From positions 150,001-182,000 of the forward strand of contig NZ_CP142525.1 of assembly GCF_051097895.1 (NCBI RefSeq): DNA of 32,000 nucleotides. The letters are read 5' to 3'. The DNA comes from Psychrobacter sp. HD31 (GTDB lineage: Bacteria > Pseudomonadota > Gammaproteobacteria > Pseudomonadales > Moraxellaceae). The notes beneath the pieces are model-generated. The model saw only the letters and a list, made by a program, of their open reading frames with translations. It had not been told where the DNA came from and made no database searches. This document shows, piece by piece, positions 3,736 through 19,399 of the stretch. How positions within the stretch are numbered: position 1 is the first letter of the stretch; the number at the start of each line of letters is the position of its first letter. The translations under genes and the position numbers were made by a program.

Positions 3736-4893
3736 TTAAGTTAACTCGCTAAATTTTTCAGGGATTTCTTTGCCTTCATATAATAGCTGATAGACTTGTA
3801 AGGTTTCATTAATGGTTTGTTTTAGTTCAAACTTATGGGTCATGGCAGGGCGTTGCACAATGTCTAACTGAGTTTTTACAGCTTTGCTAACCGCTTGCGC
3901 ATCTGTTTTCTTTACCATCCCTTGAGGGTAAGTTGCGCGTAATATTTCTGCATGAGCAGCTTTATCCCAACCCACAACGGGAGTACCAAGGTGTATTGCC
4001 TGCAAAACGGGGATACCAATGGATTCTGGTTGATTTGCTAAGGCTAATACAAGATTAGATCCTGATAGCCACTCTTTCATATCGTTGCGCTTGCTACCTA
4101 CATAAGTAATGCGCTTATCCAAATCTAAAGCAAATGCCCGTTGACGAAACTCTTCATAAGTAACATTATCAGGGTGTTCTTTATCATCATCCATGATAAT
4201 GACATGAATGTTTGGAAAATGTACCTGTAAATTACCTAAGATATCGAGCAACCATTCTTGACCATATTCTTTATCAATAATACTGGGGAACAGTAACCAT
4301 TTTTTATGTTCAAGTTCAGGAAACTCAGCAAAAATATGACGTAGCCAGTAAACTGATGGGTTATAGCGGTAGGGGAAGTGACGTACATCAACCCCACGAT
4401 AAATGCGTACAATGGGTTTGGTGTAATGGTAACTTTGTTTTAGGTTGTCTTTTAAATATTGAGTAACACTATCGGATACAGAGATAACCACATCCGAATA
4501 AAACAAAGCTTTTGAGTAGTTGTTGAGCGTATAAAAACCATAGACCGTAGAAACAATCTTTGGTGGCTTTTTAAGCCTTGCGCCTTTTAATGCCCAGTGC
4601 AGAATCCAAGCAGGGGTACGAGAGTGAACATGGATCACATCAGGTTTGTTTTTTTCTATTAGTCGACGTAACGCAAAAGCCTGAGTAATCGACCACCATG
4701 ATTTTTTCTTCATTTTTATTTGGTGGTAGATATTGCCATCACGCTCAAGGCGTTTTACCAATTTGTCATCTTTATCTGCACTTGCCACCACAATGGATGT
4801 ATGACCATTTTTTACAAGCCTATGTCCTAGATGATAAATACCCCGTTCGGATTCATCATGCTTTAAAGACGAGAGCAGACGCATAACAATCAT
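3736..4893 (-). CDS. Glycosyltransferase family 4 (group 1)
   Basis: 385-aa ORF with a GT-B fold pattern. The C-terminal half (ESIGIPVLQAIHLGTPVVG) resembles the EX7E region of GT4 enzymes. Confidence 0.6.
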   Translation of the reverse strand: MIVMRLLSSLKHDESERGIYHLGHRLVKNGHTSIVVASADKDDKLVKRLERDGNIYHQIKMKKKSWWSITQAFALRRLIEKNKPDVIHVHSRTPAWILHWALKGARLKKPPKIVSTVYGFYTLNNYSKALFYSDVVISVSDSVTQYLKDNLKQSYHYTKPIVRIYRGVDVRHFPYRYNPSVYWLRHIFAEFPELEHKKWLLFPSIIDKEYGQEWLLDILGNLQVHFPNIHVIIMDDDKEHPDNVTYEEFRQRAFALDLDKRITYVGSKRNDMKEWLSGSNLVLALANQPESIGIPVLQAIHLGTPVVGWDKAAHAEILRATYPQGMVKKTDAQAVSKAVKTQLDIVQRPAMTHKFELKQTINETLQVYQLLYEGKEIPEKFSELT

Positions 4894-4974: not shown

Positions 4975-6675
4975 CTAGAACAGACCAACAATTTTGCCAT
5001 CTTCATTAATATTGATATGCTCAGCTGCTGGTACTTTGGGTAGTCCAGGCATTTTCATGATATTGCCACAAATGACAACGATAAAGCCAGCACCGGCAGA
5101 TACGTTGATATCACGTACATGCAAAATAAAATCAGTTGGCACGCCCAGTAGTTTGGCATTGTCACTAAATGAGTATTGTGTTTTTGCAACGCAAATAGGT
5201 AGTTTATCTAGCCCTAAGCGTTCAAGGCGTTTGATGGCATTTTTGGCAGAGAGGCTCAAATCTACATCTTTTGCGCCATAGATTTTTTTGGCTAACTGAT
5301 GGATTTTGTTGATAATGCTATCATTCACATCATAAGCAAATTTAAATGTATTGATAGGGTGGTCATCCAGTGTTTGCATTACCATATTAGCGAGTTGTTC
5401 ACCACCTTTACCACCATGCTCCCAAACTTCTGTTAAGGCAACTTTTACCCCCATATCAGCACAAGCTTTAATAATCATCTCTAGCTCATCATCGCTATCA
5501 GAAACAAAGCGGTTTAAAGCAACGACCACTGGCAAACCAAATACTGTACGCATATTTTCGATATGTTTCAGTAAGTTGGGTAAGCCTTTTTTTAGGGCGT
5601 CAAGGTTTTCTTCGGTTAGTAGATCTTTTTTAACGCCACCATTATATTTTAATGCCCGAACTGTTGCCACCAATACGGCGACATCGGGTTTTATGTCGGC
5701 AAGTCGGCACTTGATGTCACAAAATTTTTCTGCACCTAAGTCGGCACCAAATCCAGCTTCGGTAATCGTATAGTCAGATAAATGCCTTGCAATCTGTGTT
5801 GCTATTACAGAATTGCATCCGTGGGCGATATTAGCAAATGGACCTCCATGCACAATGGCAGGTGTGCCTTCTATTGTTTGTACAAGGTTGGGTTTAATTG
5901 CATTTTTAAGTAGTGCCGTCATGGCACCTTGTGCGTTTAGCTGTTTGGCAAATACCGGCTGTTTATCATGGGTATAAGCCACTACCATGTTACCAAGGCG
6001 CTGTTTTAAATCAGTTAAATCGTTAGCTAAACAAAAGGCAGCCATTACTTCAGAAGCAACGGTAATATCAAATCCATCATCACGCATAATGCCATCTGTG
6101 GTTTTACCAACACCACTGATAATGTGACGGAGCTGACGGTCATTCATGTCGACTGCTCTTCGCCACATGACACGTTTTGGGTCGATATTTAGCGCATTTC
6201 CTTGATATATATGGTTATCTAACATGGCAGCTAGCAAATTGTTAGCCGCACCAATAGCATGAAAGTCACCTGTAAAGTGTAGGTTAATGTCTTCCATTGG
6301 TAAAACCTGAGCATAACCACCACCAGCAGCACCGCCTTTAATGCCAAATACAGGGCCAAGTGAAGGCTCGCGTAAGGCAACTATAGCGTTTTTGGTATTG
6401 TGGGTATTGATACGGTTGAGTGCGTCAGCAAGCCCAATAGTGACGGTGGTTTTACCTTCTCCTGCCGGTGTTGGGTTAATGGCGGTAACTAAAATGAGTT
6501 TGTTATTATTTGATTTAGCAGGAGCAGAGAAGATGTCGGTTGGGTTTAGCTTGGCTTTGTCATGCCCGTAAGGTTCGATTTTTTCTGGTGTTAACCCAAG
6601 TTTTTTAGCGATGTCTTCAATTGGTTGGATGTGTGCTTGTGTTGCTATTTGGTGGTCGTTGGGTATGTTTGCCAT
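4975..6675 (-). CDS. fhs: Formate--tetrahydrofolate ligase
   Basis: 566 aa with the signature [10 protein letters not shown] and full-length resemblance to FTHFS. Confidence 0.92.
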
Positions 6676-7097: not shown

Positions 7098-7120
7098 TAT
7101 GGTGGAGGTGGCGGGAGTTG
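7098..7120. repeat. int-distal att repeat (duplicate of the ssrA 3' end)
   Basis: TATGGTGGAGGTGGCGGGAGTTG is identical to 19041-19063. Confidence 0.9.
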
Positions 7121-7171
7121 TTTTTATCTATACAGCCCTTTATTTAAAAGGGATTAAGGTTTTCGTATTTT

Positions 7172-7194
7172 AAATATACCGTAAAATATACCGT
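7172..7194 (+). promoter_or_regulatory. Tandem TATACCGT motifs, candidate integrase arm-type sites (int-distal arm)
   Basis: AAATATACCGTAAAATATACCGT is identical to 18906-18928 and lies 52 bp inside the att repeat. Confidence 0.5.
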
Positions 7195-7701
7195 AATTTT
7201 ACAAAGTGTATTGCCTATTTGGGTATACCCCCTGCCGACTTTTGACCACATAAAAAAACGCTGGGGCTCGATGGTCTTTTAGACTAAGCCTTCCCACTTT
7301 GTACTCCCCCCTAGGTAGCTAAAAGCTCTGCCTATATAATTTGCAAATGGCTTTTCTCTTTTGTCCTTGTCATGTTTATTGCTCATACTCTTATACAGTC
7401 TACTACCGCCTTTTTGTCTATTCCATAAATTCATAAGACAAAAAAGGGAAATTTTTTTTCAAAATAGAAATTTTTTTATGAATGAGAGAGGGTGTGGTGT
7501 CCGCTTGGTATACCTTCCCAAACTTTTTGATACCCCCCTCCTTTGGGTAGGATGTTGGCATTACTATTATTTACTCTGACCTAAATAGCTTTTGGTTGAT
7601 TGCATTTATTGATTAATTAATGTCACATATGAGGCTTGCTATATTTATTGTTGGTTGACTCTTGAGGTTATATACTTATCATAGAAACGCCTTCAATTGC
7701 T

Positions 7702-7831
7702 TGCACACGCACGCACCCCCAAAACACGCTATTATGCTATTAATTCCTTTCTATGCTATGCGTACCAAGGGATACGAGGGATTGAGCTGTCTGCTATTGC
7801 GTGCTATTAGGTGCTATTCATGCTATTAATT
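7702..7831 (+). repeat. Iteron-bearing ~130-bp repeat, copy A (upstream of umuD)
   Basis: Long identical blocks are shared with 9703-9839 and, in inverted orientation, 17101-17220. It holds six GCTATT units, four of them at 9-10 bp spacing. Confidence 0.85.
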
Positions 7832-7843
7832 AGTGTTCTATCG

Positions 7844-7872
7844 TTGGGTGATTGTTCAATTCCAGTTATAAT
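7844..7872 (+). promoter_or_regulatory. Candidate sigma70 promoter for umuDC
   Basis: TTGGGT-17 nt-TATAAT, 31 bp upstream of the umuD ATG. Confidence 0.35.
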
Positions 7873-7902
7873 CACTTATCCTCTTATTAGGTTGACACAG
7901 TA

Positions 7903-8328
7903 ATGACTATCAAAATACTTGGTAAACTTTCGGCAAAAACATATCAGCCCTTACCTTTCTTTATTGAAGCTGTACCGGCTGGCTTTCCATCACCAGCAGA
8001 GGGCTACGCTGACGCAAGTATTGATTTAAATGAACTTTGTATAACTCACCCTAGTGCAACCTTTTTAGTACGTTCTAGTGGGCACTCAATGATTAACAAA
8101 GGTATCTTTGATAATGACTTATTGGTTGTAGATAGAAGTATAGAAGCTGTATCAGGAGATATTGTTGTGTGCATGGTAAATGGGGAGTTTACTGTTAAGG
8201 AGCTAGTACTAGAGCAAAAACCTATGCTAGTTGCCCATAACCCTGAATACCAAAATATAGAGCTTAACAGTGATATGGACTTTGAAGTCTTTGGTGTTGT
8301 AACAAATGTGATACGTAGTTTTAAATAA
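7903..8328 (+). CDS. umuD: UmuD-like S24 peptidase (translesion polymerase V accessory subunit)
   Basis: 141 aa with the LexA/UmuD fold pattern. The serine motif is SGHSM and a downstream Lys lies in FTVKEL. It sits immediately upstream of umuC. Confidence 0.8.
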   Translation: MTIKILGKLSAKTYQPLPFFIEAVPAGFPSPAEGYADASIDLNELCITHPSATFLVRSSGHSMINKGIFDNDLLVVDRSIEAVSGDIVVCMVNGEFTVKELVLEQKPMLVAHNPEYQNIELNSDMDFEVFGVVTNVIRSFK

Positions 8329-8417
8329 GACAACTATTGTTGCCTAACATGGTTCCGTTTTATTCTCTGAAAAATAATCATGATATAGTAATCTCACTTA
8401 ATAAATGAGTGATACCC

Positions 8418-9698
8418 ATGTATGCCTTAATTGATTGCAACAGCTTCTATGCCAGTTGTGAAAAACTATTCAGACCTGACCTTAAATATAAACCCGTTGT
8501 TGTGTTATCTAACAATGATGGTTGTGTGGTTGCACGCTCTAAAGAAGCTAAAGCCTTGGGTATTAAAATGGGCGTACCATACTTTAAGGTAGAGGGCTTC
8601 TGTAAAGCAAATGATGTAAGTGTGTTTAGTTCTAACTATACCCTGTATTCCGATTTGTCTAACCGTGTTATGTGTACGCTTGAAAGCCTATGCCCTACGG
8701 TAGAGATATACTCTATTGATGAAGCATTTTTATACCTTGATGACTACCCAACAGCCATGCAAGATTTAGAAGCATACGGGCAAATGATTAAACAAACGGT
8801 ATATAAACATACTGGCATACCTGTGGGTGTTGGTATAGGAAAAACCAAAACATTGGCTAAATTGGCAAACTATGCTGCCAAAAAACACCCCGCTACCGAT
8901 GGCGTTTGTGTATTAGATAATAGGCGTTGGATTAACCGCTTAATGCAGATAACGCCCGTTGGCGAAGTTTGGGGCGTGGGTAGAAGATATGCCAAAACAC
9001 TTAACGACATGGGTATAAACACAGTAGCAGATTTGGCGAATATGCCGTCAGGGTTGGTTAGGCAAAAGTATGGGGTGGTATTAGAACGCACACAACGAGA
9101 ATTAAACGGTCAACCCTGCCTAGATATTGAGCCAGTACAGTTAAAAAAACAGATTGTATCCTCTCGCTCATTTTCTAAACGCATTACCAATAAGCAAGAT
9201 TTAACAGAGGCGTTATGCGGTCACACAGCTAAGGCGATGGCTAAGCTAAGGGAGCAAGATAGTTTATGTACAACCATAAGCGTATTTGCTCGTAATAGTC
9301 CGTTTAGTAAGCATGAAAAGTTTACCCCTGTATCAGGGCAATATACTTTTAATGAGGCGACAAATAACACTACAGAGATGATAAAAGCGGTTAGGCTTGT
9401 TATAGATAATATGTATCAGGACAAGGTTAATTATGCAAAGGCTGGCGTTATGCTATCAGGTATTGTACAAGAAGATGAGGTGCAACCCGATTTGTTTAGT
9501 TTTGCAGGTTTAAACCCAATCAAAAAAGCAAAAGATGATGCCATTATGCAGTTAATGGATAAACTGAATACAAATAACAGCCATCAATTATTTATTGCCA
9601 GTGAGGGTGTAAGGAATAAACAAGAATGGTTAATGAATAGGCAGTATTTAAGCCCGTGTTATACAACTAGGGTTAGTGATTTGGTTTGTGTTAACTGA
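8418..9698 (+). CDS. umuC: UmuC-like Y-family DNA polymerase (Pol V catalytic subunit)
   Basis: The N-terminus [15 protein letters not shown] and SIDEAFL are classic Y-family motifs. The ATG at 8418 is preferred over the GTG at 8409. Confidence 0.88.
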
Positions 9699-9702
9699 TA
9701 AT

Positions 9703-9839
9703 CCATTTGCTTGTATACGAACGTACCCAAAACACGCTATTATGCTATTAATTCCTTTCTATTCTATGCGTACCAAGGGACACAGAGGATTTAATAAAAT
9801 GCTATTGCGTGCTATTAGGTGCTATTTATGCTATTAATT
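9703..9839 (+). repeat. Iteron-bearing repeat, copy B (downstream of umuC)
   Basis: Direct repeat of copy A. It shares AAAACACGCTATTATGCTATTAATTCCTTTCTA, CTATGCGTACCAAGGGA and GCTATTGCGTGCTATTAGGTGCTATT.ATGCTATTAATT. Confidence 0.85.
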
Positions 9840-10091
9840 TACTAATTTTAATATAACCTGATGAATTTAAAAGATAATTTAGAGCCTAAATAATGGGTGT
9901 AGGGGTTGTAGGTATTTTGCCTATAACTGTAGGATGATTGCTCGCCTGATTAGGCTTGCTGATAGGGTGATAATGATATTGTGAAGTCCAAATTTGGGCT
10001 TTGCTTAAAAATCAATAATTTAAAAAAATAAAGGGATACGCTTGGAACGCACCCCTTTATCAACCACATTTAATACTTATTAAGATTATAT

Positions 10092-12308
10092 TTATTTGTC
10101 AGTAAATACTTTTGGGTTGAGTTCTATACTGGCTTTGTTGTCGTGTTTAATCTCTCGTATGTGGTTATTATCTTTTAATATCTTGATAAGTGGGTCTAGC
10201 TTTTTCTTTTTGCGTAAGCTTGTAGGTGTTATGCCTTGCTGTAGTTTTACCCTAGGAACAATAGTTATATTATTCTCACGGCAATAGTTAATAAGCCAGT
10301 TTTCTACTCTATCTGCTTGTACTAGTTTTTCATCAAAATCCGTATAGCCTCCATAGCGTTCCCACTCCATGAGGCTATGCTCTGCCAATTTAATGCCACT
10401 GACCATTAGTTCGGGTGTTATTGCCTCTGACCCTTCAAAAAATGCCAACACGGTTGCAATGCGTATTGCGTTTGGTAAGGCTCTACCTGCAAATGACTTT
10501 AGGTGTACAAACTTGCCAGCACGTCCAACCTTTTTTTCAATATCATTATAAAAGTTCATTGCTAGGGTGTCGGCTTCATCGGTAAGGGGTATAACAGGGC
10601 GTTCAATGCGTCCGTCTATACTTTGAGGTGGTATTTTATCGAGTAAAAACTGGCAACGCCTCCAGTATTCAACTAAGCGTTTATCTTTGTAAAACTCTCT
10701 ATTATTTTTCCATGTATCTGCGGTATGGGTACGCTTGCCCGCCAAGGTGTCGGGGGCAGTGAATAAAAACCTACACAAAAAGCCTTGCTCCATCATCATT
10801 TTGTCATTTAGCACTTTTTCTAAGGCTACCTTTTGCCCTAGCATGTTAATACACAAACGCACGTCATAAGCCACGCCTGACCCATTCGCATTTGAACGTG
10901 AGCGGTGACGTGCTACTGGCTCACCATCCCATGTTTCTGTACATATGGATAGGGTAGACCCTTGATTATCTGCACTAAATGAGTATGACCCAAATACTTT
11001 GCTTGCTTCACCGCCAGTGATATAAGCACTTTTAAGGTGTTCATGAATATAAGAGCCCACAAGGCTGTCTATTGTAAAATCGCTATATATGGCTTTTGGG
11101 TTTAATGGTTTGGGGTATTTTTGTTCGTATTCCTCTTTCGCTTTATTACCTTTGCATTGTGCTAGGGCTTTGTTATGCTCTTCTAATCTGTCTAGGTATT
11201 GGTTGTATTCTTTTTTGTCATGCTCAACTATCCGTAAATTAGCTTTATTGATACAAGAGGATTTTCTATCTCCACTATCTCCCTCAATCATAATAAACAA
11301 GCTACAAGGCTCGCCATATTGATGTTGGAATGAGCGGGCATTTACATGGTTTTGGGCTAAATAAGCCATCGCCCCAAGTACCGTATGACCAGCCATAGCT
11401 ATGCTGGCTTGTGAGTGCTGTGCTATAGCACTAACCGCATTTTTAGCCAGTGGTGGAAAAGCGTCTAATGGGTATCGGTTGGGTTCGCCCCGTTCATTTA
11501 TTAATAAAGTAAAAGGCTCGCTTTTATTAATTTCATCCCAAGATAGTTGTTTTTTTTCATCATCAGATAGGGTAGTAGATGTATTGGCTATATTCATACG
11601 GTGGATGTCTGCATTATCCATTAATCGTATAACCTCTGTATTATCTATCTCCCAGTCTATGGCAAATTCTAGGGCATATATAGCAACATTGGTATTGGTT
11701 AGTAGGGTCTTGTAGTCGCTAAGCTCATGTATGCCTATAGGGGCTATTAAACGCCCTTTGGCTTTAAATTGCCATTGCTTGGCTACATAGGCAAGGTTTG
11801 CAGGTGTAAAGCACACCATGATGGTTGCTGTACTATCTAGTTTGTAAAGATTTAGCCCCGCCTGTAGGTCTGCTACCAGGTAAACTTTATTATCCGTGGT
11901 AAAGGAAGAGCCGATAATAAAAGCACCTTGCGGATGTATTATTGGTTCAAAAATGGTTTTACCTTGAATACCTTTATCATCAATGGGTGGAATCATGGCG
12001 GTGTTAGTAGGCTGTAAATCACTATTTACCAAAGGTAATAATAAATGATTAATGCAATTTATATTGCCATTGTCTCCTTTAGTAAAGCCTTCTTTAGTGA
12101 GCAGTATATTACCGCTAATAATTGCACTTGCAGGTAGGTGTGCTAAAGGCTCATGGTATTGGCTTATTACATCATTGGTAGCACGGTTATTCTCAAATAA
12201 TCTTATGAGTTGTTGTGCAGGATTTTGATTTAATGATGGTTCATTTGCTGGCGGTTCATTGCCACCTTTGGTTGTACTTTGCTTAGTTTTATCGGTTTGG
12301 GTATTCAC
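10092..12308 (-). CDS. DUF3987 (YfjI-like) primase/helicase-like replication protein
   Basis: 738 aa. The central block YPLDAFPPLAKNAVSAIAQHSQASIAMAGHTVLGAMAYLAQ matches the characteristic DUF3987 N-terminal motif. A P-loop-like GDSGDRKS follows. The gene sits downstream of alpA, as in CP4-57. Confidence 0.65.
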   Translation of the reverse strand: MNTQTDKTKQSTTKGGNEPPANEPSLNQNPAQQLIRLFENNRATNDVISQYHEPLAHLPASAIISGNILLTKEGFTKGDNGNINCINHLLLPLVNSDLQPTNTAMIPPIDDKGIQGKTIFEPIIHPQGAFIIGSSFTTDNKVYLVADLQAGLNLYKLDSTATIMVCFTPANLAYVAKQWQFKAKGRLIAPIGIHELSDYKTLLTNTNVAIYALEFAIDWEIDNTEVIRLMDNADIHRMNIANTSTTLSDDEKKQLSWDEINKSEPFTLLINERGEPNRYPLDAFPPLAKNAVSAIAQHSQASIAMAGHTVLGAMAYLAQNHVNARSFQHQYGEPCSLFIMIEGDSGDRKSSCINKANLRIVEHDKKEYNQYLDRLEEHNKALAQCKGNKAKEEYEQKYPKPLNPKAIYSDFTIDSLVGSYIHEHLKSAYITGGEASKVFGSYSFSADNQGSTLSICTETWDGEPVARHRSRSNANGSGVAYDVRLCINMLGQKVALEKVLNDKMMMEQGFLCRFLFTAPDTLAGKRTHTADTWKNNREFYKDKRLVEYWRRCQFLLDKIPPQSIDGRIERPVIPLTDEADTLAMNFYNDIEKKVGRAGKFVHLKSFAGRALPNAIRIATVLAFFEGSEAITPELMVSGIKLAEHSLMEWERYGGYTDFDEKLVQADRVENWLINYCRENNITIVPRVKLQQGITPTSLRKKKKLDPLIKILKDNNHIREIKHDNKASIELNPKVFTDK

Positions 12309-12789: not shown

Positions 12790-13658
12790 AATATACCCCC
12801 AACACGTCCGTTAGTAGTTTTTGCCATTTCATCATTTAGTCTATTGATGGTATGACGTATAAAATCGGCATTGGTTTCACTGCTTAGTTGTGCTAGTCGT
12901 GCAAGGGCTTGGATTTGGCTTATACTATCTAGTGCTTTGATTGTTGCAAAAAGGCTGGTTAGGTTGTTTAAGGCTTCATAAACGCATAATAAATCATCTA
13001 TATTGCTTCGTGCCTCACCAACTGGTAAAGAGATGGTTTCATTTTGGATATTTGCATTACCTTGTGGTATATCAGTTACGTTATTAGAAGGGTTATTACT
13101 GGCTGGTACTATTGCGTCACTGGGAGGTCTAATCACCTTATAACCATCATATTCTGCCTGTAACTCTTGCATAGTGACAATATTGCTTAGGATATTATCC
13201 ATTGCTTCTAGTTTCGCTTTACTGTTACGGGTGTCTAGCCCTGCTTTTTGGTTTAATTCAACTTCTGCATTTAGTTGATTGAGTGCATTATGAGCATATT
13301 TGCACCAGTCGTTAAGGGTAGGTGTTTGATGATTAAATGCCTTTGTTGGCTCACTTGCCAGCTTGGCGGGCATGTGCGTTTGCAACTGAATACGCATTAG
13401 GTCGATACTTTTTATTACTTCCTTACTGTCTGTTGTAAAATCCATGGTTAGGATTTCATCAATAGTTTGTAGGTGTCTGATTGTTTGTGTATCGTGCGAG
13501 TGGGTTTGAGTATAAGCCTTGGTAGCCGTTTTTAGAGCGTCTAATAGCTCTATTTGCTCTACCTTGCAGGTAATGCTGTCTTGACTGTCGCCAAGTAGCT
13601 GTAACAGCTCATCACGGTTAATTTGTGTGGTTATTGGGGTTTGGTTTGATGTGGTCAT
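12786..13658 (-). CDS. Hypothetical protein, apparently alpha-helical
   Basis: 290-aa ORF with 4-nt start/stop overlaps on both sides, consistent with translational coupling. No family was recognised. Confidence 0.6.
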   Translation of the reverse strand: MTTSNQTPITTQINRDELLQLLGDSQDSITCKVEQIELLDALKTATKAYTQTHSHDTQTIRHLQTIDEILTMDFTTDSKEVIKSIDLMRIQLQTHMPAKLASEPTKAFNHQTPTLNDWCKYAHNALNQLNAEVELNQKAGLDTRNSKAKLEAMDNILSNIVTMQELQAEYDGYKVIRPPSDAIVPASNNPSNNVTDIPQGNANIQNETISLPVGEARSNIDDLLCVYEALNNLTSLFATIKALDSISQIQALARLAQLSSETNADFIRHTINRLNDEMAKTTNGRVGGIL

Positions 13659-14074
13659 GATTGACCTCCTAATAGATTTTGAGTTAATGCCACGCTATGA
13701 AAATTCATAGGGTAACGGGTCTTACTCTCGGTACTATTAGTAACCGCCCTGCATATTCGCCTAATGGCTTTTGTATTTTGCAACGTCAACCCGTTATAAG
13801 GTGGTAAATTGATTACCATAGATACAACGGTTTTACCCTGTTGGGTAAATTGCTTTGTACTTTTATACTGGTTTGGTTGAGAGCCGTGCCAGTTTTTTTG
13901 CACAAAAAAAGCCAATGGTTCACGGATTGGCTGTCCGCTAATAGTTTTAGAGAGGTCTCCAGTATAGGCGAATGCACAACTAAAAGGCAAGCACAATAAT
14001 ATAAATATGATTATTGCCATGCAGGTATCTTTTATTCTTTTAGCTAGTTTATGTTTGGGTTGTTTGGTGGTCAT
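13655..14074 (-). CDS. Hypothetical small secreted or membrane-anchored protein
   Basis: 139 aa. A basic N-terminus (KHKLAKRIK) is followed by a hydrophobic segment AIIIFILLCLPFSCAFA. It overlaps both neighbours by 4 nt. Confidence 0.55.
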   Translation of the reverse strand: MTTKQPKHKLAKRIKDTCMAIIIFILLCLPFSCAFAYTGDLSKTISGQPIREPLAFFVQKNWHGSQPNQYKSTKQFTQQGKTVVSMVINLPPYNGLTLQNTKAIRRICRAVTNSTESKTRYPMNFHSVALTQNLLGGQS

Positions 14075-15171
14075 TTGTTTGCTCCGTTATTAATTGAGTC
14101 ACTTATAGACGCAAGTAACAATCCAGCGGGGTTGTAATGAGTTAAACCATGGGTCATGGCATGGTCAAAGATAAGCCCTGTCTCTCGGATTATCGCCATA
14201 GCTTGGTCGCTGTCTGCTTTCTCTTGAACATCAAGCATGATGGCTTCAATATTGCCGTGTGATATATCCCTAATATCCATAGAACCAATCAGCGGTTTAA
14301 CAAAATGAATATAGGCAGCATACAAACGGTCGTTTGTGCTTTTATCTAGTTGAGCTTTATGCTCTGCAAACCACCCTTGTGCAATGTCATCAAATAGATT
14401 GGAGCGGTGCATGGTTGTGGTTTTTACTACTGGGGAGCTTGGATTTAAGTGTATAAAGCCGTTTATCTCATCGCTAAAGGTTTGTAGCCTTGTTTGTAGA
14501 ATTTGATTAATTACGGCTAAATGGTGGGCGTTATCGTCTTTGCTCATCATGATAAAACCAATATCATCACGGTAAAGGTTGTGGTTATGGCGTGTGGTTG
14601 TATCTTCAATGTTGTTTAAGGGGCTACTCCCAAAACTTGCACAGTCGGCAATAAAGCGGTGTCCTTTAAGTGTAACCATTGTGAGGAGATACTCGCCTCG
14701 TTTTGACGGGTAAACGTCATTTATATTGAGGGGGTCAGTAGGCTTGATTTGCTCTATGTCGTGAACATAGGCAAAGTTGCTGGCACGTGTACTCCACTCG
14801 TCATTATGTGACTTGTATTTAGTAGAGTAGTCGGGGTGGTTGCGTATGTCATCATTGGTTAAACCATTGTTAAGGGCATGAGATAACTCCTCATAGTCCA
14901 TATATTGGCGGTTAACAATTAATATACTATCTACGGTATCATTGATACATTCTAGCCAGCCATTGGCTATGTGAATGGTCATATCCGCTACATAATCCCA
15001 ATCGGTACAATCAAAGCCAACATTGATATGGTTGCCTTTTTTACTGGTAGCAATAAGCACATACTTGTGTTGCTTTGCCTGCTCTAGGTTAGTTACCCAA
15101 GGTTTACCGTTAGCAGTGGCGTTGTCATTAAATGGGTCGGGGTGTACGGTATGAATTGGTTGTTTAGTCAT
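14071..15171 (-). CDS. Hypothetical protein: unknown N-terminal region fused to an integrase core-binding (SAM-like) domain, with no catalytic domain
   Basis: 366 aa. Residues ~260-350 align at roughly 45-50 percent identity (hand count) with residues ~101-190 of the island integrase. The shared blocks are FD.IAQ.W.AE.K..L.K.T.DR.Y.AY...VKP.IG.M.I.DI and IRE.G.IF.HA...GL...NPA. Confidence 0.6.
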   Translation of the reverse strand: MTKQPIHTVHPDPFNDNATANGKPWVTNLEQAKQHKYVLIATSKKGNHINVGFDCTDWDYVADMTIHIANGWLECINDTVDSILIVNRQYMDYEELSHALNNGLTNDDIRNHPDYSTKYKSHNDEWSTRASNFAYVHDIEQIKPTDPLNINDVYPSKRGEYLLTMVTLKGHRFIADCASFGSSPLNNIEDTTTRHNHNLYRDDIGFIMMSKDDNAHHLAVINQILQTRLQTFSDEINGFIHLNPSSPVVKTTTMHRSNLFDDIAQGWFAEHKAQLDKSTNDRLYAAYIHFVKPLIGSMDIRDISHGNIEAIMLDVQEKADSDQAMAIIRETGLIFDHAMTHGLTHYNPAGLLLASISDSINNGANK

Positions 15172-15173
15172 GA

Positions 15174-15464
15174 TTAAGCTACCCCGTCATCGTTATAGTT
15201 TTCGTCATTTGAGGCTTGGGCTTTGAACCAAGCGTGCACGTCCTCATTTGCCCATGCTGTTACTGTTGGGCTTAATTTATGAGGTTTAGGGAATAAGCCC
15301 TCTTTAGTCCATTTCCAAAGCGTGCTTTCGCCAATGGGTAAATAGGGTAGTAGCTGTTTTGCTCGACTAAAGCCATTAACGGGTAAGGCTGGGGGCTGGG
15401 TGTTGCTAGTTTGTCTATCTAATTCGCTTTTATTTGCGTTTTGAGAGGTGTTTGCGGTAGTCAT
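15174..15464 (-). CDS. alpA: AlpA-family helix-turn-helix regulator (excision/transcription activator)
   Basis: LPIGESTLWKWTKEGLFPKPHKLSPTVTAWANEDVHAWF matches the Phage_AlpA pattern. The start at M18 (15464) is preferred because AAGGAA lies upstream. The longest ORF would start at 15515. Confidence 0.8.
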   Translation of the reverse strand: MTTANTSQNANKSELDRQTSNTQPPALPVNGFSRAKQLLPYLPIGESTLWKWTKEGLFPKPHKLSPTVTAWANEDVHAWFKAQASNDENYNDDGVA

Positions 15465-15578
15465 AGTACAATTCCTTATCTTTAAGTTGTAAATGCTTAA
15501 ATACACTATTGTCATCTATCACCGTGGTAATGAATGACGCTAGATGTTTGGAATTGTAGAAGTTGGAGCGTTTCAGTG

Positions 15579-16536: not shown

Positions 16537-16806
16537 TTAAAATAGTTTTTCTAATGCCTCATGTTTTAAAGTTATTAAAGCGGTCTTGTCATCTTCAAAT
16601 CTTATAAAAACCGTTACGTCATCAACATTGCCTGTTAAGCTGTATCCTGCTAGACCACCGAGTAAAGCACCAACGCCACCAGTTAGCATACCTGCTGTAA
16701 GTGCAAACATGCTACCTTGGAATACACTGTAGCCATGCTTTTTGGCTTGGTGGTGGTCGATTATGTCAATGCTGTATATCTCGTTAAGTTTACGACCTTT
16801 TGCCAC
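16537..16806 (-). CDS. Small glycine-zipper membrane protein, probably the -1 frame continuation of ORF 16761-16943
   Basis: 89-aa ORF with GMLTGGVGALLGGLAGYS. It has a GTG start with no SD. It is reachable from the upstream ORF by a -1 shift at A_AAA_AAC. Confidence 0.5.
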   Translation of the reverse strand: MAKGRKLNEIYSIDIIDHHQAKKHGYSVFQGSMFALTAGMLTGGVGALLGGLAGYSLTGNVDDVTVFIRFEDDKTALITLKHEALEKLF

Positions 16807-16943
16807 TGGTTTTTTTCTTTAAAAAAACGTCCTTTTTCTTCCATCTCATAAAAATAAATAAAACTGCCACTAATCCAACCATCTTTGATTAAGTAGTGGT
16901 TACTGTCATGCGTTGTAAAATTGTGTATTCCTAAAAAAGCCAT
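16761..16943 (-). CDS. Upstream 60-aa ORF (zero frame) of the split cargo gene
   Basis: ATG at 16943 is preceded by GAGGG 7 nt upstream. It overlaps the 89-aa ORF by 46 nt in a different frame. Confidence 0.45.
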   Translation of the reverse strand: MAFLGIHNFTTHDSNHYLIKDGWISGSFIYFYEMEEKGRFFKEKNQWQKVVNLTRYTALT

Positions 16944-17100
16944 CTTATACCCTCGTGTTGGTATAGCACAGTTAATTTATGGTCATTTGACTACACAGGT
17001 TTTTAATTCCGCGTTTCAAACGCGAAACTAAAAAAACATCATGCTATTTTTAAACCTTTAAGTTTTTATTTAAAATCAATGATTTAGTTTGGCTTTAAAA

Positions 17101-17220
17101 CAATAATAGCATTAATAGCACGCACTAGCATTTTATTAAATCCTCTGTATCCCTTGGTACGCATAGCATAGAAAGGAATTAATAGCATAATAGCGTGTTT
17201 CGGGGGTGCGTGCGTGTGCA
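17101..17220 (-). repeat. Iteron-bearing repeat, copy C (inverted, mosaic of A and B)
   Basis: The reverse complement begins TGCACACGCACGCACCCCC as in A and continues AGAGGATTTAATAAAATGCTA as in B. It has one GCTATT unit fewer. Confidence 0.85.
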
Positions 17221-17635
17221 TATCTGCATAGATAAATTACGCCTAAAATGGGGTTAGGTTTGCTCGGATTTCAAATCTGACCAAAAACTAACCACGCATG
17301 ACCTGCCAATATTGCCATTTAAAAAATCTTGTTATGATAATATATATAATAAAAACAATAACTTAATAAATAAAAAAGAGAAAAAACAAAAAATCACGCC
17401 CGATGGGTAGAAAAACGGGCAGGGCTGGCAAGTGAGCCAACACGGTGTAACCGTGTGTGTAAAACATTGGCTATGGTGTGGGTTGGTAAGATGTAAAGAC
17501 TAATAAGGATATATGTAATATATAATATATATATATTTATATATCTATTAATATTCTTAATCTATTTCTTACTTTCCCCTCTATACCAGTGTATCCTTTT
17601 TTATTTTATTAAATGGTTATCATTACTATTTAATA

Positions 17636-18880
17636 TTATTGGTTAATAGACTTTCCTGTATCAGATTTAAAATCAACGTGTATCACATTATCCAATGTGC
17701 CAAGCTTTGCATTATCAATAATTTTAGCCCAATCATTCATCATCTTGGTTCTATACTTAATATACATAGCACCATCATAAGCTTTGCTTACCTTGTTATC
17801 TTTATCGTGGGCTAATTGTAGCTCAATAGCTTCGTGCATATATTCAAGTTCATGTAGGGTTGTGCTGGCAAGACCTCTAAAGCCGTGTGTGGTCATCTTC
17901 CCTTTGTAACCCATTTTGTATAGAGCATTTATAAAAGCATGTGAACTTAAAGGCTGGCGTTTGCTGGTGTTATAAAATACATATTTTTCACTAAACCCCA
18001 ATCCTTTGATTTGTTGTAGTAGCTCAATAACAGGTGGTGCTAACGGTACCAGGTGTTTACGTTTTACTTTCATTTTTTCGGCTGATAAACGTATTATTTT
18101 ATCTTTAAAATCAATATCTGCCCATTCAAGCATTCTTACCTCATTGGTTCTCAAAAAGGTGTAGCAAGTAAACCACAAGCCTAGTTTAACCAATACATGC
18201 CCTTTATAGTTGTCAATATCTTGTAATAGCTGGGGTAGTTGTCGTATCGTAATACGGTTGTGGTGCTTTGTTATACTCGGCTGTATGGCTTCTGTGAGGT
18301 TTATAGCTGGGTTGTGAGTAGCTAAACCTTGCCTAATAGCATGCTTAAATATTTGCCCAACCTCACGTATGGTACGTTTTGACATCTCTATTGCTCCCCG
18401 TTTTTCAATGGCTTTTCCAATAGCTAAAATATCAGGAGGGGCTATATCTGTAATTATCATATGTCCTATAGCGGGTTTTACATCCCTTTCATAAGCAGAA
18501 TAATTACGGTCATATGTTTTCTTAGCAAGGTAAGTTTTACGCTCTGCATACCACTCTTGTGCGATGTTATCAAACAATAGAGAGCCATCTACTTTGGCTT
18601 TTTGCTCTTTTTTGTGTTGCTTAGGGTCTGTGCCTTGGGCAATCATTTGGCGGACGTGTTGGTGTTTTTGGCGGGCTTGTGCCAATGACAGTATAGGATA
18701 CTTACCAAGAGTAAGGCTTTGGCGTTTACCGTTAAATTTATAGTCTGATACCCAAACCTTATTACCAGTATGACGTACCCAAAGACGTAAGCCGTCTCCA
18801 TCACTGTATTTGTCAGGGCGGGCAGGGGTACATTTATCGGTTGGCTTCAACCGTTTAATGGCGGTATCTGTTAGAGGCAT
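17636..18880 (-). CDS. int: P4/CP4-57-type tyrosine integrase (arm-binding DUF4102 N-terminus, SAM-like core-binding domain, catalytic domain)
   Basis: 414 aa. The N-terminus LTDTAIKRLKP...DGDGLRLWV is typical of P4-type integrases. Catalytic-domain motifs LRTNEV and HGFRGLAST are present. It lies adjacent to ssrA. Confidence 0.9.
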   Translation of the reverse strand: MPLTDTAIKRLKPTDKCTPARPDKYSDGDGLRLWVRHTGNKVWVSDYKFNGKRQSLTLGKYPILSLAQARQKHQHVRQMIAQGTDPKQHKKEQKAKVDGSLLFDNIAQEWYAERKTYLAKKTYDRNYSAYERDVKPAIGHMIITDIAPPDILAIGKAIEKRGAIEMSKRTIREVGQIFKHAIRQGLATHNPAINLTEAIQPSITKHHNRITIRQLPQLLQDIDNYKGHVLVKLGLWFTCYTFLRTNEVRMLEWADIDFKDKIIRLSAEKMKVKRKHLVPLAPPVIELLQQIKGLGFSEKYVFYNTSKRQPLSSHAFINALYKMGYKGKMTTHGFRGLASTTLHELEYMHEAIELQLAHDKDNKVSKAYDGAMYIKYRTKMMNDWAKIIDNAKLGTLDNVIHVDFKSDTGKSINQ

Positions 18881-18905
18881 TGACGGTATATTTCCTTAAT
18901 TAAAT

Positions 18906-18928
18906 AAATATACCGTAAAATATACCGT
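18906..18928 (+). promoter_or_regulatory. Tandem TATACCGT motifs, candidate integrase arm-type sites (int-proximal arm)
   Basis: Identical 23-mer to 7172-7194. An inverted ACGGTATA lies at 18883-18890 next to the int start codon. Confidence 0.5.
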
Positions 18929-19040
18929 TATTTTAAATAGATTACAAGAGACTATACTAGACTATATAATAGTCTAAATCCCCTGTAAGCCTTTAAAAAT
19001 ATAGCCCAGTCGGATTATATCAGACTGGGCTATATTGGTG

Positions 19041-19063
19041 TATGGTGGAGGTGGCGGGAGTTG
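19041..19063. repeat. int-proximal att repeat (functional 3' end of ssrA plus 2 nt)
   Basis: Identical to 7098-7120. Confidence 0.9.
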
Positions 19064-19399
19064 AACCCGCGTCCGCCAGCACTACGCTCATGAATCTACA
19101 TGTTTAGGGTCTGTCTATAAATTTAATCCGTTCCGAACCGACAGTCAGGTAAGATTGGACGAGTCTTTAAATTTAGTCTCATTAGTCAAGACACCTAACA
19201 AGACGGACCTATGTGCGTTCGCTTCGGGGTGATCAACCTAACCATAGGTAGTTAGTGACGACCCAAGCAGCCCTTAGGCTGCTAGAGCGTAAGTTTCGTC
19301 GTTTGCGACTATTTTAAAATATACTTGATTTACGAGAGGGTATAACTCTCGACATGCATCATTGAGTTTCATCACCAGCGTCGAAGCCAGAACACCCCC
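19043..19399 (-). ncRNA. ssrA: tmRNA (transfer-messenger RNA)
   Basis: The 5' end GGGGGTGTTCTGGCTTCGAC pairs with the 3' end CACCTCC-A-CCA, including a G3-U wobble. The T-arm is GGGTTCAACTCCC. The tag reading frame GCAAACGACGAAACTTACGCTCTAGCAGCCTAA (19274-19306) encodes ANDETYALAA. Confidence 0.95.

Follow-up and report, generated by a model that had tools for sequence, protein, structure and literature searches.

We analysed a window of 32,000 nt from the genome of Psychrobacter sp. HD31 (contig NZ_CP142525.1, positions 150,001 to 182,000; all coordinates given here count from the first letter of this window). It holds a genomic island of about 11.9 kb, integrated at the gene for transfer-messenger RNA (tmRNA), and all three copies, here called A, B and C, of a repeat built from short TGCTATT units lie within this island. 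The bounds of the island follow from a direct repeat of 23 bp, as the 23-nt attachment (att) core TATGGTGGAGGTGGCGGGAGTTG at the 3' end of the tmRNA gene (19041-19063) recurs at 7098-7120. Read along the minus strand, the island consists of the integrase gene (int), copy C, a row of open reading frames (ORFs) running from 16943 to 10092, which includes an AlpA-family gene and ends with the gene of a DUF3987 protein, a strong terminator, copy B, umuC and umuD (both encoded on the other strand), copy A, an arm-type repeat and the distal att site (Table 1). Three proteins of the window were looked up by exact sequence and matched no record. At NCBI, the DUF3987 and UmuC proteins have counterparts of 100% identity from strain HD31. 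Judging from a comparison with the DNA and proteins of related islands, we think that A, B and C are probably half-copies of an iteron-type replication origin belonging to the island.

Three related repeats with helically phased units

The first-pass annotation of the window had described A and B as direct repeats of about 130 bp and C as a third, inverted copy. Our alignments bear this out, including the identical blocks that had been quoted. A and B share 89% identity over 114 nt (7718-7831 / 9726-9839) with identical runs of 37 and 27 nt, A and C share 89% over 108 nt on complementary strands (7702-7809 / 17113-17220), and B and C share 96% over 92 nt (9726-9817 / 17113-17204). The shared blocks form a mosaic, in which A and C have the outer flank in common, B and C the spacer, and A and B the four-unit block; this pattern suggests exchange between the copies.

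In copies A and B, the hexamer GCTATT occurs six times each (A: 7728, 7736, 7793, 7803, 7813 and 7822; B: 9736, 9744, 9801, 9811, 9821 and 9830), with steps of 8, then 57, then 10, 10 and 9 nt. The last four units, which in A are complete TGCTATT heptamers, stand about one helical turn apart, as had been proposed. The annotated number of six units per copy is right for A and B. In C, by contrast, we found on the minus strand only four exact units (17105, 17114, 17181 and 17189), together with the near-copies ACTAGCA at 17124 and AATAGCG at 17189, its four-unit block being partly degenerate (TGCTAGT, a 1-nt deletion and TGTTTT). Across the window GCTATT is present 43 times compared to 28.5 ± 5.1 times in shuffled sequences (0 of 100 shuffles reached 43), and 16 of the 43 fall within the roughly 390 bp made up by the three copies. 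No further cluster was found in the island when one mismatch was allowed.

A ends 71 nt before the ATG of umuD (7831 to 7903) and C ends 157 nt before the start of an ORF (17101 to 16943). The ORF at 16943 had been taken for an accessory module, while it is actually the first ORF of the minus-strand row that runs to the DUF3987 gene. B begins at most 5 nt past the umuC stop (9698) and sits 253 nt past the DUF3987 stop, with the terminator alone in between. One inverted TGCTATT (17042-17048) is located across an AT-rich gap from C.

The repeat turned out to be rare. Its invariant 20-mer, GCTATTATGCTATTAATTCC, has no match in viral contigs and none in 185,579 species genomes (one genome per species), which argues against a generic high-copy element, and a BLASTN search of copy A against plasmids and phages returned no match. 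The sole metagenome match of the 20-mer lies inside the coding region of an ABC-permease gene and was dismissed as a chance occurrence. A looser pattern (TGCTATT-N3, three times in a row) is found in 13 viral contigs, 0 of which encode a DUF3987 relative, and these were taken as unrelated tandem repeats.

Could the repeat simply be a small mobile element, akin to a miniature inverted-repeat transposable element (MITE), or a small RNA gene that is present three times in the island? It is short, dispersed and of uniform length, and the minus strand of copy C reaches a folding z-score of -2.05. The remaining folding z-scores range from +0.05 to -1.27, however, and Rfam returned no match for the repeat (the window gave the tmRNA only). 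Neither terminal inverted repeats nor target-site duplications were seen where the homology of A, B and C ends, in line with the earlier observation, and no copy exists in the window outside of the island. Since these hallmarks of a MITE, as well as any match in the genome and viral collections, were lacking, this label was rejected. Moreover, homology to one half of a replication origin, as presented below, explains the sequence fully, and we regard a mobile element or an RNA gene as very improbable.

Iteron arrays next to DUF3987 genes in related islands

For comparison we assembled 79 DUF3987 loci from reference genomes, 64 of which were informative for the array count, and found phased short repeats right behind almost every one of the genes. 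For a strict count, we scored an array where a single 6-mer occurs 8 times or more around the DUF3987 stop, 3 times or more in each orientation. Such an array was found at 46 of the 64 loci, but in only 37 of 2396 control windows. The family array measures about 200 bp, lies directly 3' of the DUF3987 gene and follows the plan F2-spacer-F4 / R4-spacer-R2: two forward units, a spacer of approximately 45 nt (often with a small hairpin), three or four forward units and a short AT-rich centre are followed by three or four inverted units, a spacer and two inverted units. The unit itself varies by lineage, the variants being TGCGGAA, TGCGACA, GGCGACA, TGACTAA, TGCGATT, GGCTTAA, GAAAGT and TGCTAAT.

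When the three copies are aligned with the Acinetobacter arrays, they prove colinear with either half, as they do with elements of three further islands (L017, L018 and L020); each repeat of the window therefore corresponds to one half of a family array. The units change in concert, being TGCTATT in HD31 and TGCTAAT or GGCTAAT in the relatives. The metagenomic islands L017 and L018 encode DUF3987 proteins that are 52% and 48% identical to that of the window. Their homologous elements share the core CCTCTGTATCCCTTG and are phased as in HD31, but have the unit ATTAGCC instead of AATAGCA. In P. aquimaris (L020), tRNA-Pro and the integrase gene are followed by an element in which a 56-nt step separates two units from three (TGCTAA) and which matches copy C in position and orientation. 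A forward half just past int is thus present in L020, and it is also found in Acinetobacter (L024, L025 and L037); in all four cases it uses the same unit as the gene-adjacent array 5-6 kb apart. Partly split arrays occur as well, with halves 1.5 kb apart around the helicase gene in Microbulbifer and gaps of 700-900 bp in L081 and L067.

Some observations on individual loci may be added. A Moraxellaceae genome (L075) has both ATTAGCA and AATAGCA units; beyond its origin, at 11131-11218, five tandem ATTAGCATC units are followed by five AATAGCAGG units, and both unit variants of the Psychrobacter islands are therefore found together in one place. The 6.5-kb metagenomic contig L066 has the same origin blocks at its two ends (1-88 and 6369-6458), as expected of a circular or tandem DUF3987 element. 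In five loci of GC-rich hosts (L053, L059, L064, L069 and L089), the DUF3987 ORF continues through the iteron array for about 200 nt past the protein homology, and the annotated 3' end of the coding sequence may overlap with the origin there.

A predicted winged-helix tail co-varies with the units

Which protein, then, would read the units? Biochemical work has demonstrated 5'-3' helicase activity for a PriCT-DUF3987 protein, which carries Walker A and B motifs and ends in a small domain (PMC11724360). In the HD31 protein, the last 107 codons or so (about 10095-10415) encode a predicted winged-helix domain, which we propose as the reader of the iterons. The model of these 107 residues (predicted local distance difference test score, pLDDT, of 79) contains helices and a beta hairpin in winged-helix topology, and its best PDB matches in a Foldseek search are winged-helix DNA binders, with E-values of only about 0.01. 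PDB sequences were also searched with a profile, and no meaningful match was obtained.

The relation between tail and unit was analysed in pairs among 53 loci, matched by the identity of the helicase core. At a core identity of 0.8-0.9, the C-terminal identity is 0.35 in pairs with different units (n = 63) compared to 0.72 in pairs with the same units (n = 16), and at a core identity above 0.9 it is 0.54 and 0.85, respectively. No comparable drop between different-unit and same-unit pairs is seen in the final 170 residues of the core, and AlpA follows the unit identity much less than the C-terminal domain does. The pair L026 and L021 may serve as an example: with 96% identity in the core and 93% in AlpA, the C-termini are only 47% identical, and the units are GAAAGT and GACTAA, respectively. 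These comparisons lend strong support to the view that the predicted winged-helix tail and the array are exchanged together, as a single specificity module.

The same data bear on a different role, in which the repeats would be operator or activator sites and a regulator of the island (of the AlpA family or another) would act on the umuDC promoter downstream of A and on the operon promoter downstream of C, with no part in replication. Excisionases and AlpA-type proteins bind head-to-tail phased repeats, plasmid iterons often double as autoregulatory operators, and the four-unit ends of A and C point at the nearby gene starts 71 and 157 nt away, all of which would suit regulation. B, in contrast, faces the convergent terminator of the DUF3987 gene, where there is nothing to regulate, the family arrays sit 3' of the DUF3987 gene and not at promoters, and unit identity follows the C-terminal domain of the DUF3987 protein far more than AlpA. 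Scans for consensus promoters near A and C performed no better than on shuffled sequences. We consider a purely regulatory function unlikely, whereas a dual role as operator and origin is possible.

The umuDC cassette between copies A and B

The segment between A and B (7832-9702) comprises exactly a promoter region, umuD and umuC. Given the identical runs of 37 and 27 nt, a loss of umuDC by RecA-mediated homologous recombination between the two copies is plausible. umuDC is also cargo in the related islands L052, L054 and L067. The closest relatives of UmuC (66-69% identity) reside in unrelated defence or restriction contexts, and no half-origin was found beside them; the repeats therefore belong to the island and not to umuDC. 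A comparable arrangement exists in a Marinobacter island (L084), in which a complete origin is duplicated (249 nt, 87% identity; 11488-11736 and 14101-14349) around 2.4 kb of cargo.

The cargo in L084 consists of one ORF without known function and a Mor-like ORF, and a Toprim primase is encoded there by a separate gene upstream of the DUF3987 gene. The loci with the closest umuDC relatives (L102-L104, 69%) adjoin two genes for AAA_15/SMC-like ATPases, a UvrD-like helicase and ORFs of 1136-1320 aa, one of them with an integrase domain, which looks like a different mobile or defence context.

A dispersed replication origin?

Viewed in the direction of the operon, C reads F2-spacer-F4 and stands upstream, B reads R4-spacer-R2 and stands 7.3 kb downstream, and A repeats B another 2 kb further. 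The first-pass annotation had compared the repeats with ori and crr of phage P4 and suggested that they could be dispersed iteron clusters bound by the DUF3987 protein. Array homology, the co-variation of unit and C-terminus, the order of parts shared with P4 (see below) and the rarity of the repeat all point in this direction. We propose that the C-terminal winged-helix domain of the DUF3987 protein would read the TGCTATT units, which the 9-10-bp phasing would place on one face of the helix. The bound array might then open the adjoining AT-rich DNA at B, at C or at both, and load the helicase. The separated arrays could act jointly by looping, as in P4 ori/crr, or alternatively serve as extra initiator-binding sites that also touch nearby promoters, and the A/B pair may be a by-product of the acquisition of umuDC.

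Several points weigh against an origin function. A working origin of a phage-inducible chromosomal island (PICI) is defined by two inverted sets, and none of the copies has these by itself; each consists of two sets in a single orientation around a spacer that is not AT-rich, and both orientations come only from C and B together, 7.3 kb apart. A position immediately 3' of the initiator gene, another feature of a PICI origin, applies to B, but not to A or C. The four-unit block of C is partly decayed, and the E-values of the Foldseek matches are modest (about 0.01). We recognised no primase domain among the products of the island, Pfam returned nothing for the N-terminal 300 aa of its DUF3987 protein, and an AlphaFold model of the N-terminal 235 aa was discarded as unusable (pLDDT 39); replication competence is therefore uncertain. 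Furthermore, the co-variation is confounded by linkage, as the segment encoding the winged helix adjoins the array, and the pairs compared are not independent. One observation speaks for a shared binding protein over mere linkage: the second half-array of L024, L025 and L037 has the unit of the gene-adjacent array at a distance of 5-6 kb.

Part of these findings would also suit inert debris of a once-complete origin that was scattered by rearrangements in a decaying island: none of the copies is a complete two-sided origin, C has degenerate units and no primase was recognised. In CP4-57 of E. coli K-12, which is a decayed relative, no array follows yfjI and any such array has been lost. On the other hand, the ORFs from int to the DUF3987 gene are all intact, the copies have kept 89-96% identity with mosaic blocks that hint at selection or at gene conversion still under way, four other islands have a half in the position of C, and AT-rich DNA has been kept beside B and C. 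Debris appears decidedly unlikely to us, and half-origins of the island's own replication system remain the probable identity of A, B and C.

We also consider a bolder version, to which we attach only tentative belief. The halves flanking the 7.3-kb replication operon could form a split origin that is joined by DUF3987-mediated looping, and iteron half-sites could in addition act as portable homology 'handles' for the capture and shedding of cargo by islands of this family. If true, a split origin would be the solution of P4 ori/crr reached with an unrelated helicase, and umuDC in HD31 as well as the unrelated 2.4-kb cassette between the duplicated origins of the Marinobacter island would be examples of such handles.

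Why does the identification of half-origins matter? It would give the repeat a concrete and testable function and suggests a rule for int-alpA-DUF3987 islands (in Moraxellaceae, pseudomonads and Marinobacter), which form a large and poorly studied group: the origin would be the phased array after the helicase gene, with its specificity conferred by a swappable winged-helix tail. With such a rule, one could predict origins, as well as incompatibility or specificity groups, from the sequence. The layout in HD31 would moreover be a natural experiment on whether half-origins can work at a distance, and it illustrates how a mobile island can carry an operon for an error-prone polymerase, which may be amplified or lost along with it.

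Further features of the island

Tandem ATATACCGT motifs are located at 7171-7201 and 18905-18935, with an inverted motif at 18883-18893, hence near both island ends and beside the start of int; they are probably arm-type sites of the integrase. The motif is also present in the related metagenomic island L017 (5749-5768 and 7159-7178). A 19-nt motif, AGCTGGCAAGTGAGCCAAC, recurs in coding and non-coding parts of the island (13350-13362, minus; 17424-17436, plus) and three times in the closest related contig L015 (381-402, 1695-1716 and around 3835); allowing up to 2 mismatches, 6 matches were counted compared to 0.5 expected. In Psychrobacter-type islands, one to three palindromes of the type AAAGGG...CCCTTT with T tails lie 3' of the DUF3987 gene, and a similar palindrome lies in the spacer of the P. 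aquimaris half-origin.

The sole recognisable part of the minus-strand ORF at 14071-15171 (366 aa) is a C-terminal 'phage integrase central domain' (residues 260-350), which resembles part of the integrase encoded in the P. aquimaris island. Just past copy C, the first two small ORFs (16761-16943 and 16537-16806, both minus) share 46 nt in different frames and match no family; the overlap could reflect a frameshift or two tiny genes.

Table 1 Features of the HD31 island and its flanks, with window coordinates unless a related locus is named.
Feature	Position	Strand	Remarks
Second att core copy, distal island end	7098-7120		23-bp repeat
Arm-type repeat TAAATATACCGTAAAATATACCGT	7171-7201	plus	partner at 18905-18935
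Copy A, probable half-origin	7702-7831	plus	F2 block 7727-7741, 50-nt spacer, four-unit block 7792-7827 (TGCTATT at 10, 10, 9 nt); R4-spacer-R2 in operon direction
umuD	7903-8328	plus	Peptidase_S24; cargo between A and B
umuC	8418-9698	plus	IMS, IMS_C, DUF4113; cargo between A and B; ATG 8418 within ORF 8409-9698
Copy B, probable half-origin	9703-9839	plus	F2 block 9735-9749, four-unit block 9800-9835
AT-rich flank at four-unit end of B	9840-9919		28% GC vs 38.5% in window; candidate unwinding region
Intrinsic terminator of DUF3987 operon	10027-10061	minus	16-bp stem, then T run
AAAGGG...CCCTTT palindromes	10027-10061 (window); ~3790-3820 (L015); 4318-4421 (L017); 6144-6289 (L018)
DUF3987 protein gene	10092-12308	minus	738 aa; Walker A GDSGDRKS
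AlpA-family gene	15174-15515	minus	inside operon; rival candidate binder
AT-rich flank at four-unit end of C	17021-17100		23% GC vs 38.5% in window
Copy C, probable half-origin	17101-17220	minus	between int and first ORF; forward relative to operon
Tyrosine integrase gene (int)	17636-18880	minus	with arm-binding domain
att core copy inside tmRNA 3' end	19041-19063		23-bp repeat
tmRNA gene	19043-19399	minus	sole Rfam match in window

Comparison with known systems

[quoted passage not shown] PICMIs are defined by int, alpA, a DUF3987/DUF5906 primase and a Fis regulator (PMC10803314); no Fis-type domain was detected in the ORFs of the HD31 island (Pfam, E <= 0.01), which places the island outside this group.

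The origins of Gram-negative PICIs lie immediately 3' of the replicase gene and have an AT-rich region flanked by two sets of iterons (Fillol-Salom et al. 2018, PMC6092414), and EcCICFT073's pri-rep-ori segment drives plasmid replication (PMC6092414). We read the EcCICFT073 origin as F2-spacer-F4 / R3-spacer-R2 with CTGTCTACC units. It thus shares with the family arrays and the HD31 repeats the short iterons arranged in blocks 3' of a replicase gene and the general plan F2-spacer-F4 / R3/4-spacer-R2, and both islands have int and alpA and genes transcribed in one direction. Unlike in EcCICFT073, whose Pri-Rep protein has the domains D5_N/DUF5906/Pox_D5, the replicase of HD31 is a DUF3987 protein, and in place of a complete two-sided origin HD31 has halves 7.3 kb apart that flank the operon, one of them being duplicated around cargo.

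In plasmids such as P1 (incA) and F (incC), auxiliary iteron clusters are extra arrays of initiator sites outside the origin proper, which can titrate the initiator or pair with the origin. HD31 is similar in having extra arrays of putative initiator sites outside an origin, but plasmid iterons are 17-22 bp long, whereas the HD31 units have 7 bp at a period of 9-10 bp.

A parallel in layout is P4, whose ori and crr are bound by the alpha primase-helicase. According to its GenBank record, the order of parts in P4 is ori (with type-1 repeats), the operon from an AlpA-family gene (vis) to alpha, the alpha terminator, crr, attP and int. The excised, circular HD31 island would have the matching order of C, the operon from alpA to the DUF3987 gene, the terminator, B/A, attP and int. 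Both elements have two cis sites far apart that share a short repeat, one on either side of the replicase operon (in HD31, C upstream and B and A downstream), and the downstream site follows the operon terminator beside attP and int. In the GenBank record, crr comprises two 120-bp direct repeats with type-1 repeats next to the replicase terminator, and A and B, a pair of direct repeats of about 130 bp, may be a counterpart. The differences are also evident: the crr repeats are 60 bp apart and each has units in both orientations, whereas A and B are 1.87 kb apart with umuDC in between and have a single orientation; the unit is TGCTATT in HD31 but TGTTCACC in P4; and the HD31 island is devoid of sid, delta, psu and cos genes. 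Alpha combines a Zn ribbon with Toprim, D5_N, DUF5906 and Pox_D5 domains, while the HD31 protein has DUF3987 only, and BLASTP revealed no similarity between the two (E = 1; different Pfam domains). As the replicases are unrelated, the likeness to P4 is therefore one of design and not of family membership. Beyond homology and co-variation, the steps of our model are ones that we infer from sequence; on this basis, the dispersed and duplicated half-origins of HD31 appear to be a variant of the known iteron origins of phage-satellite-like islands.

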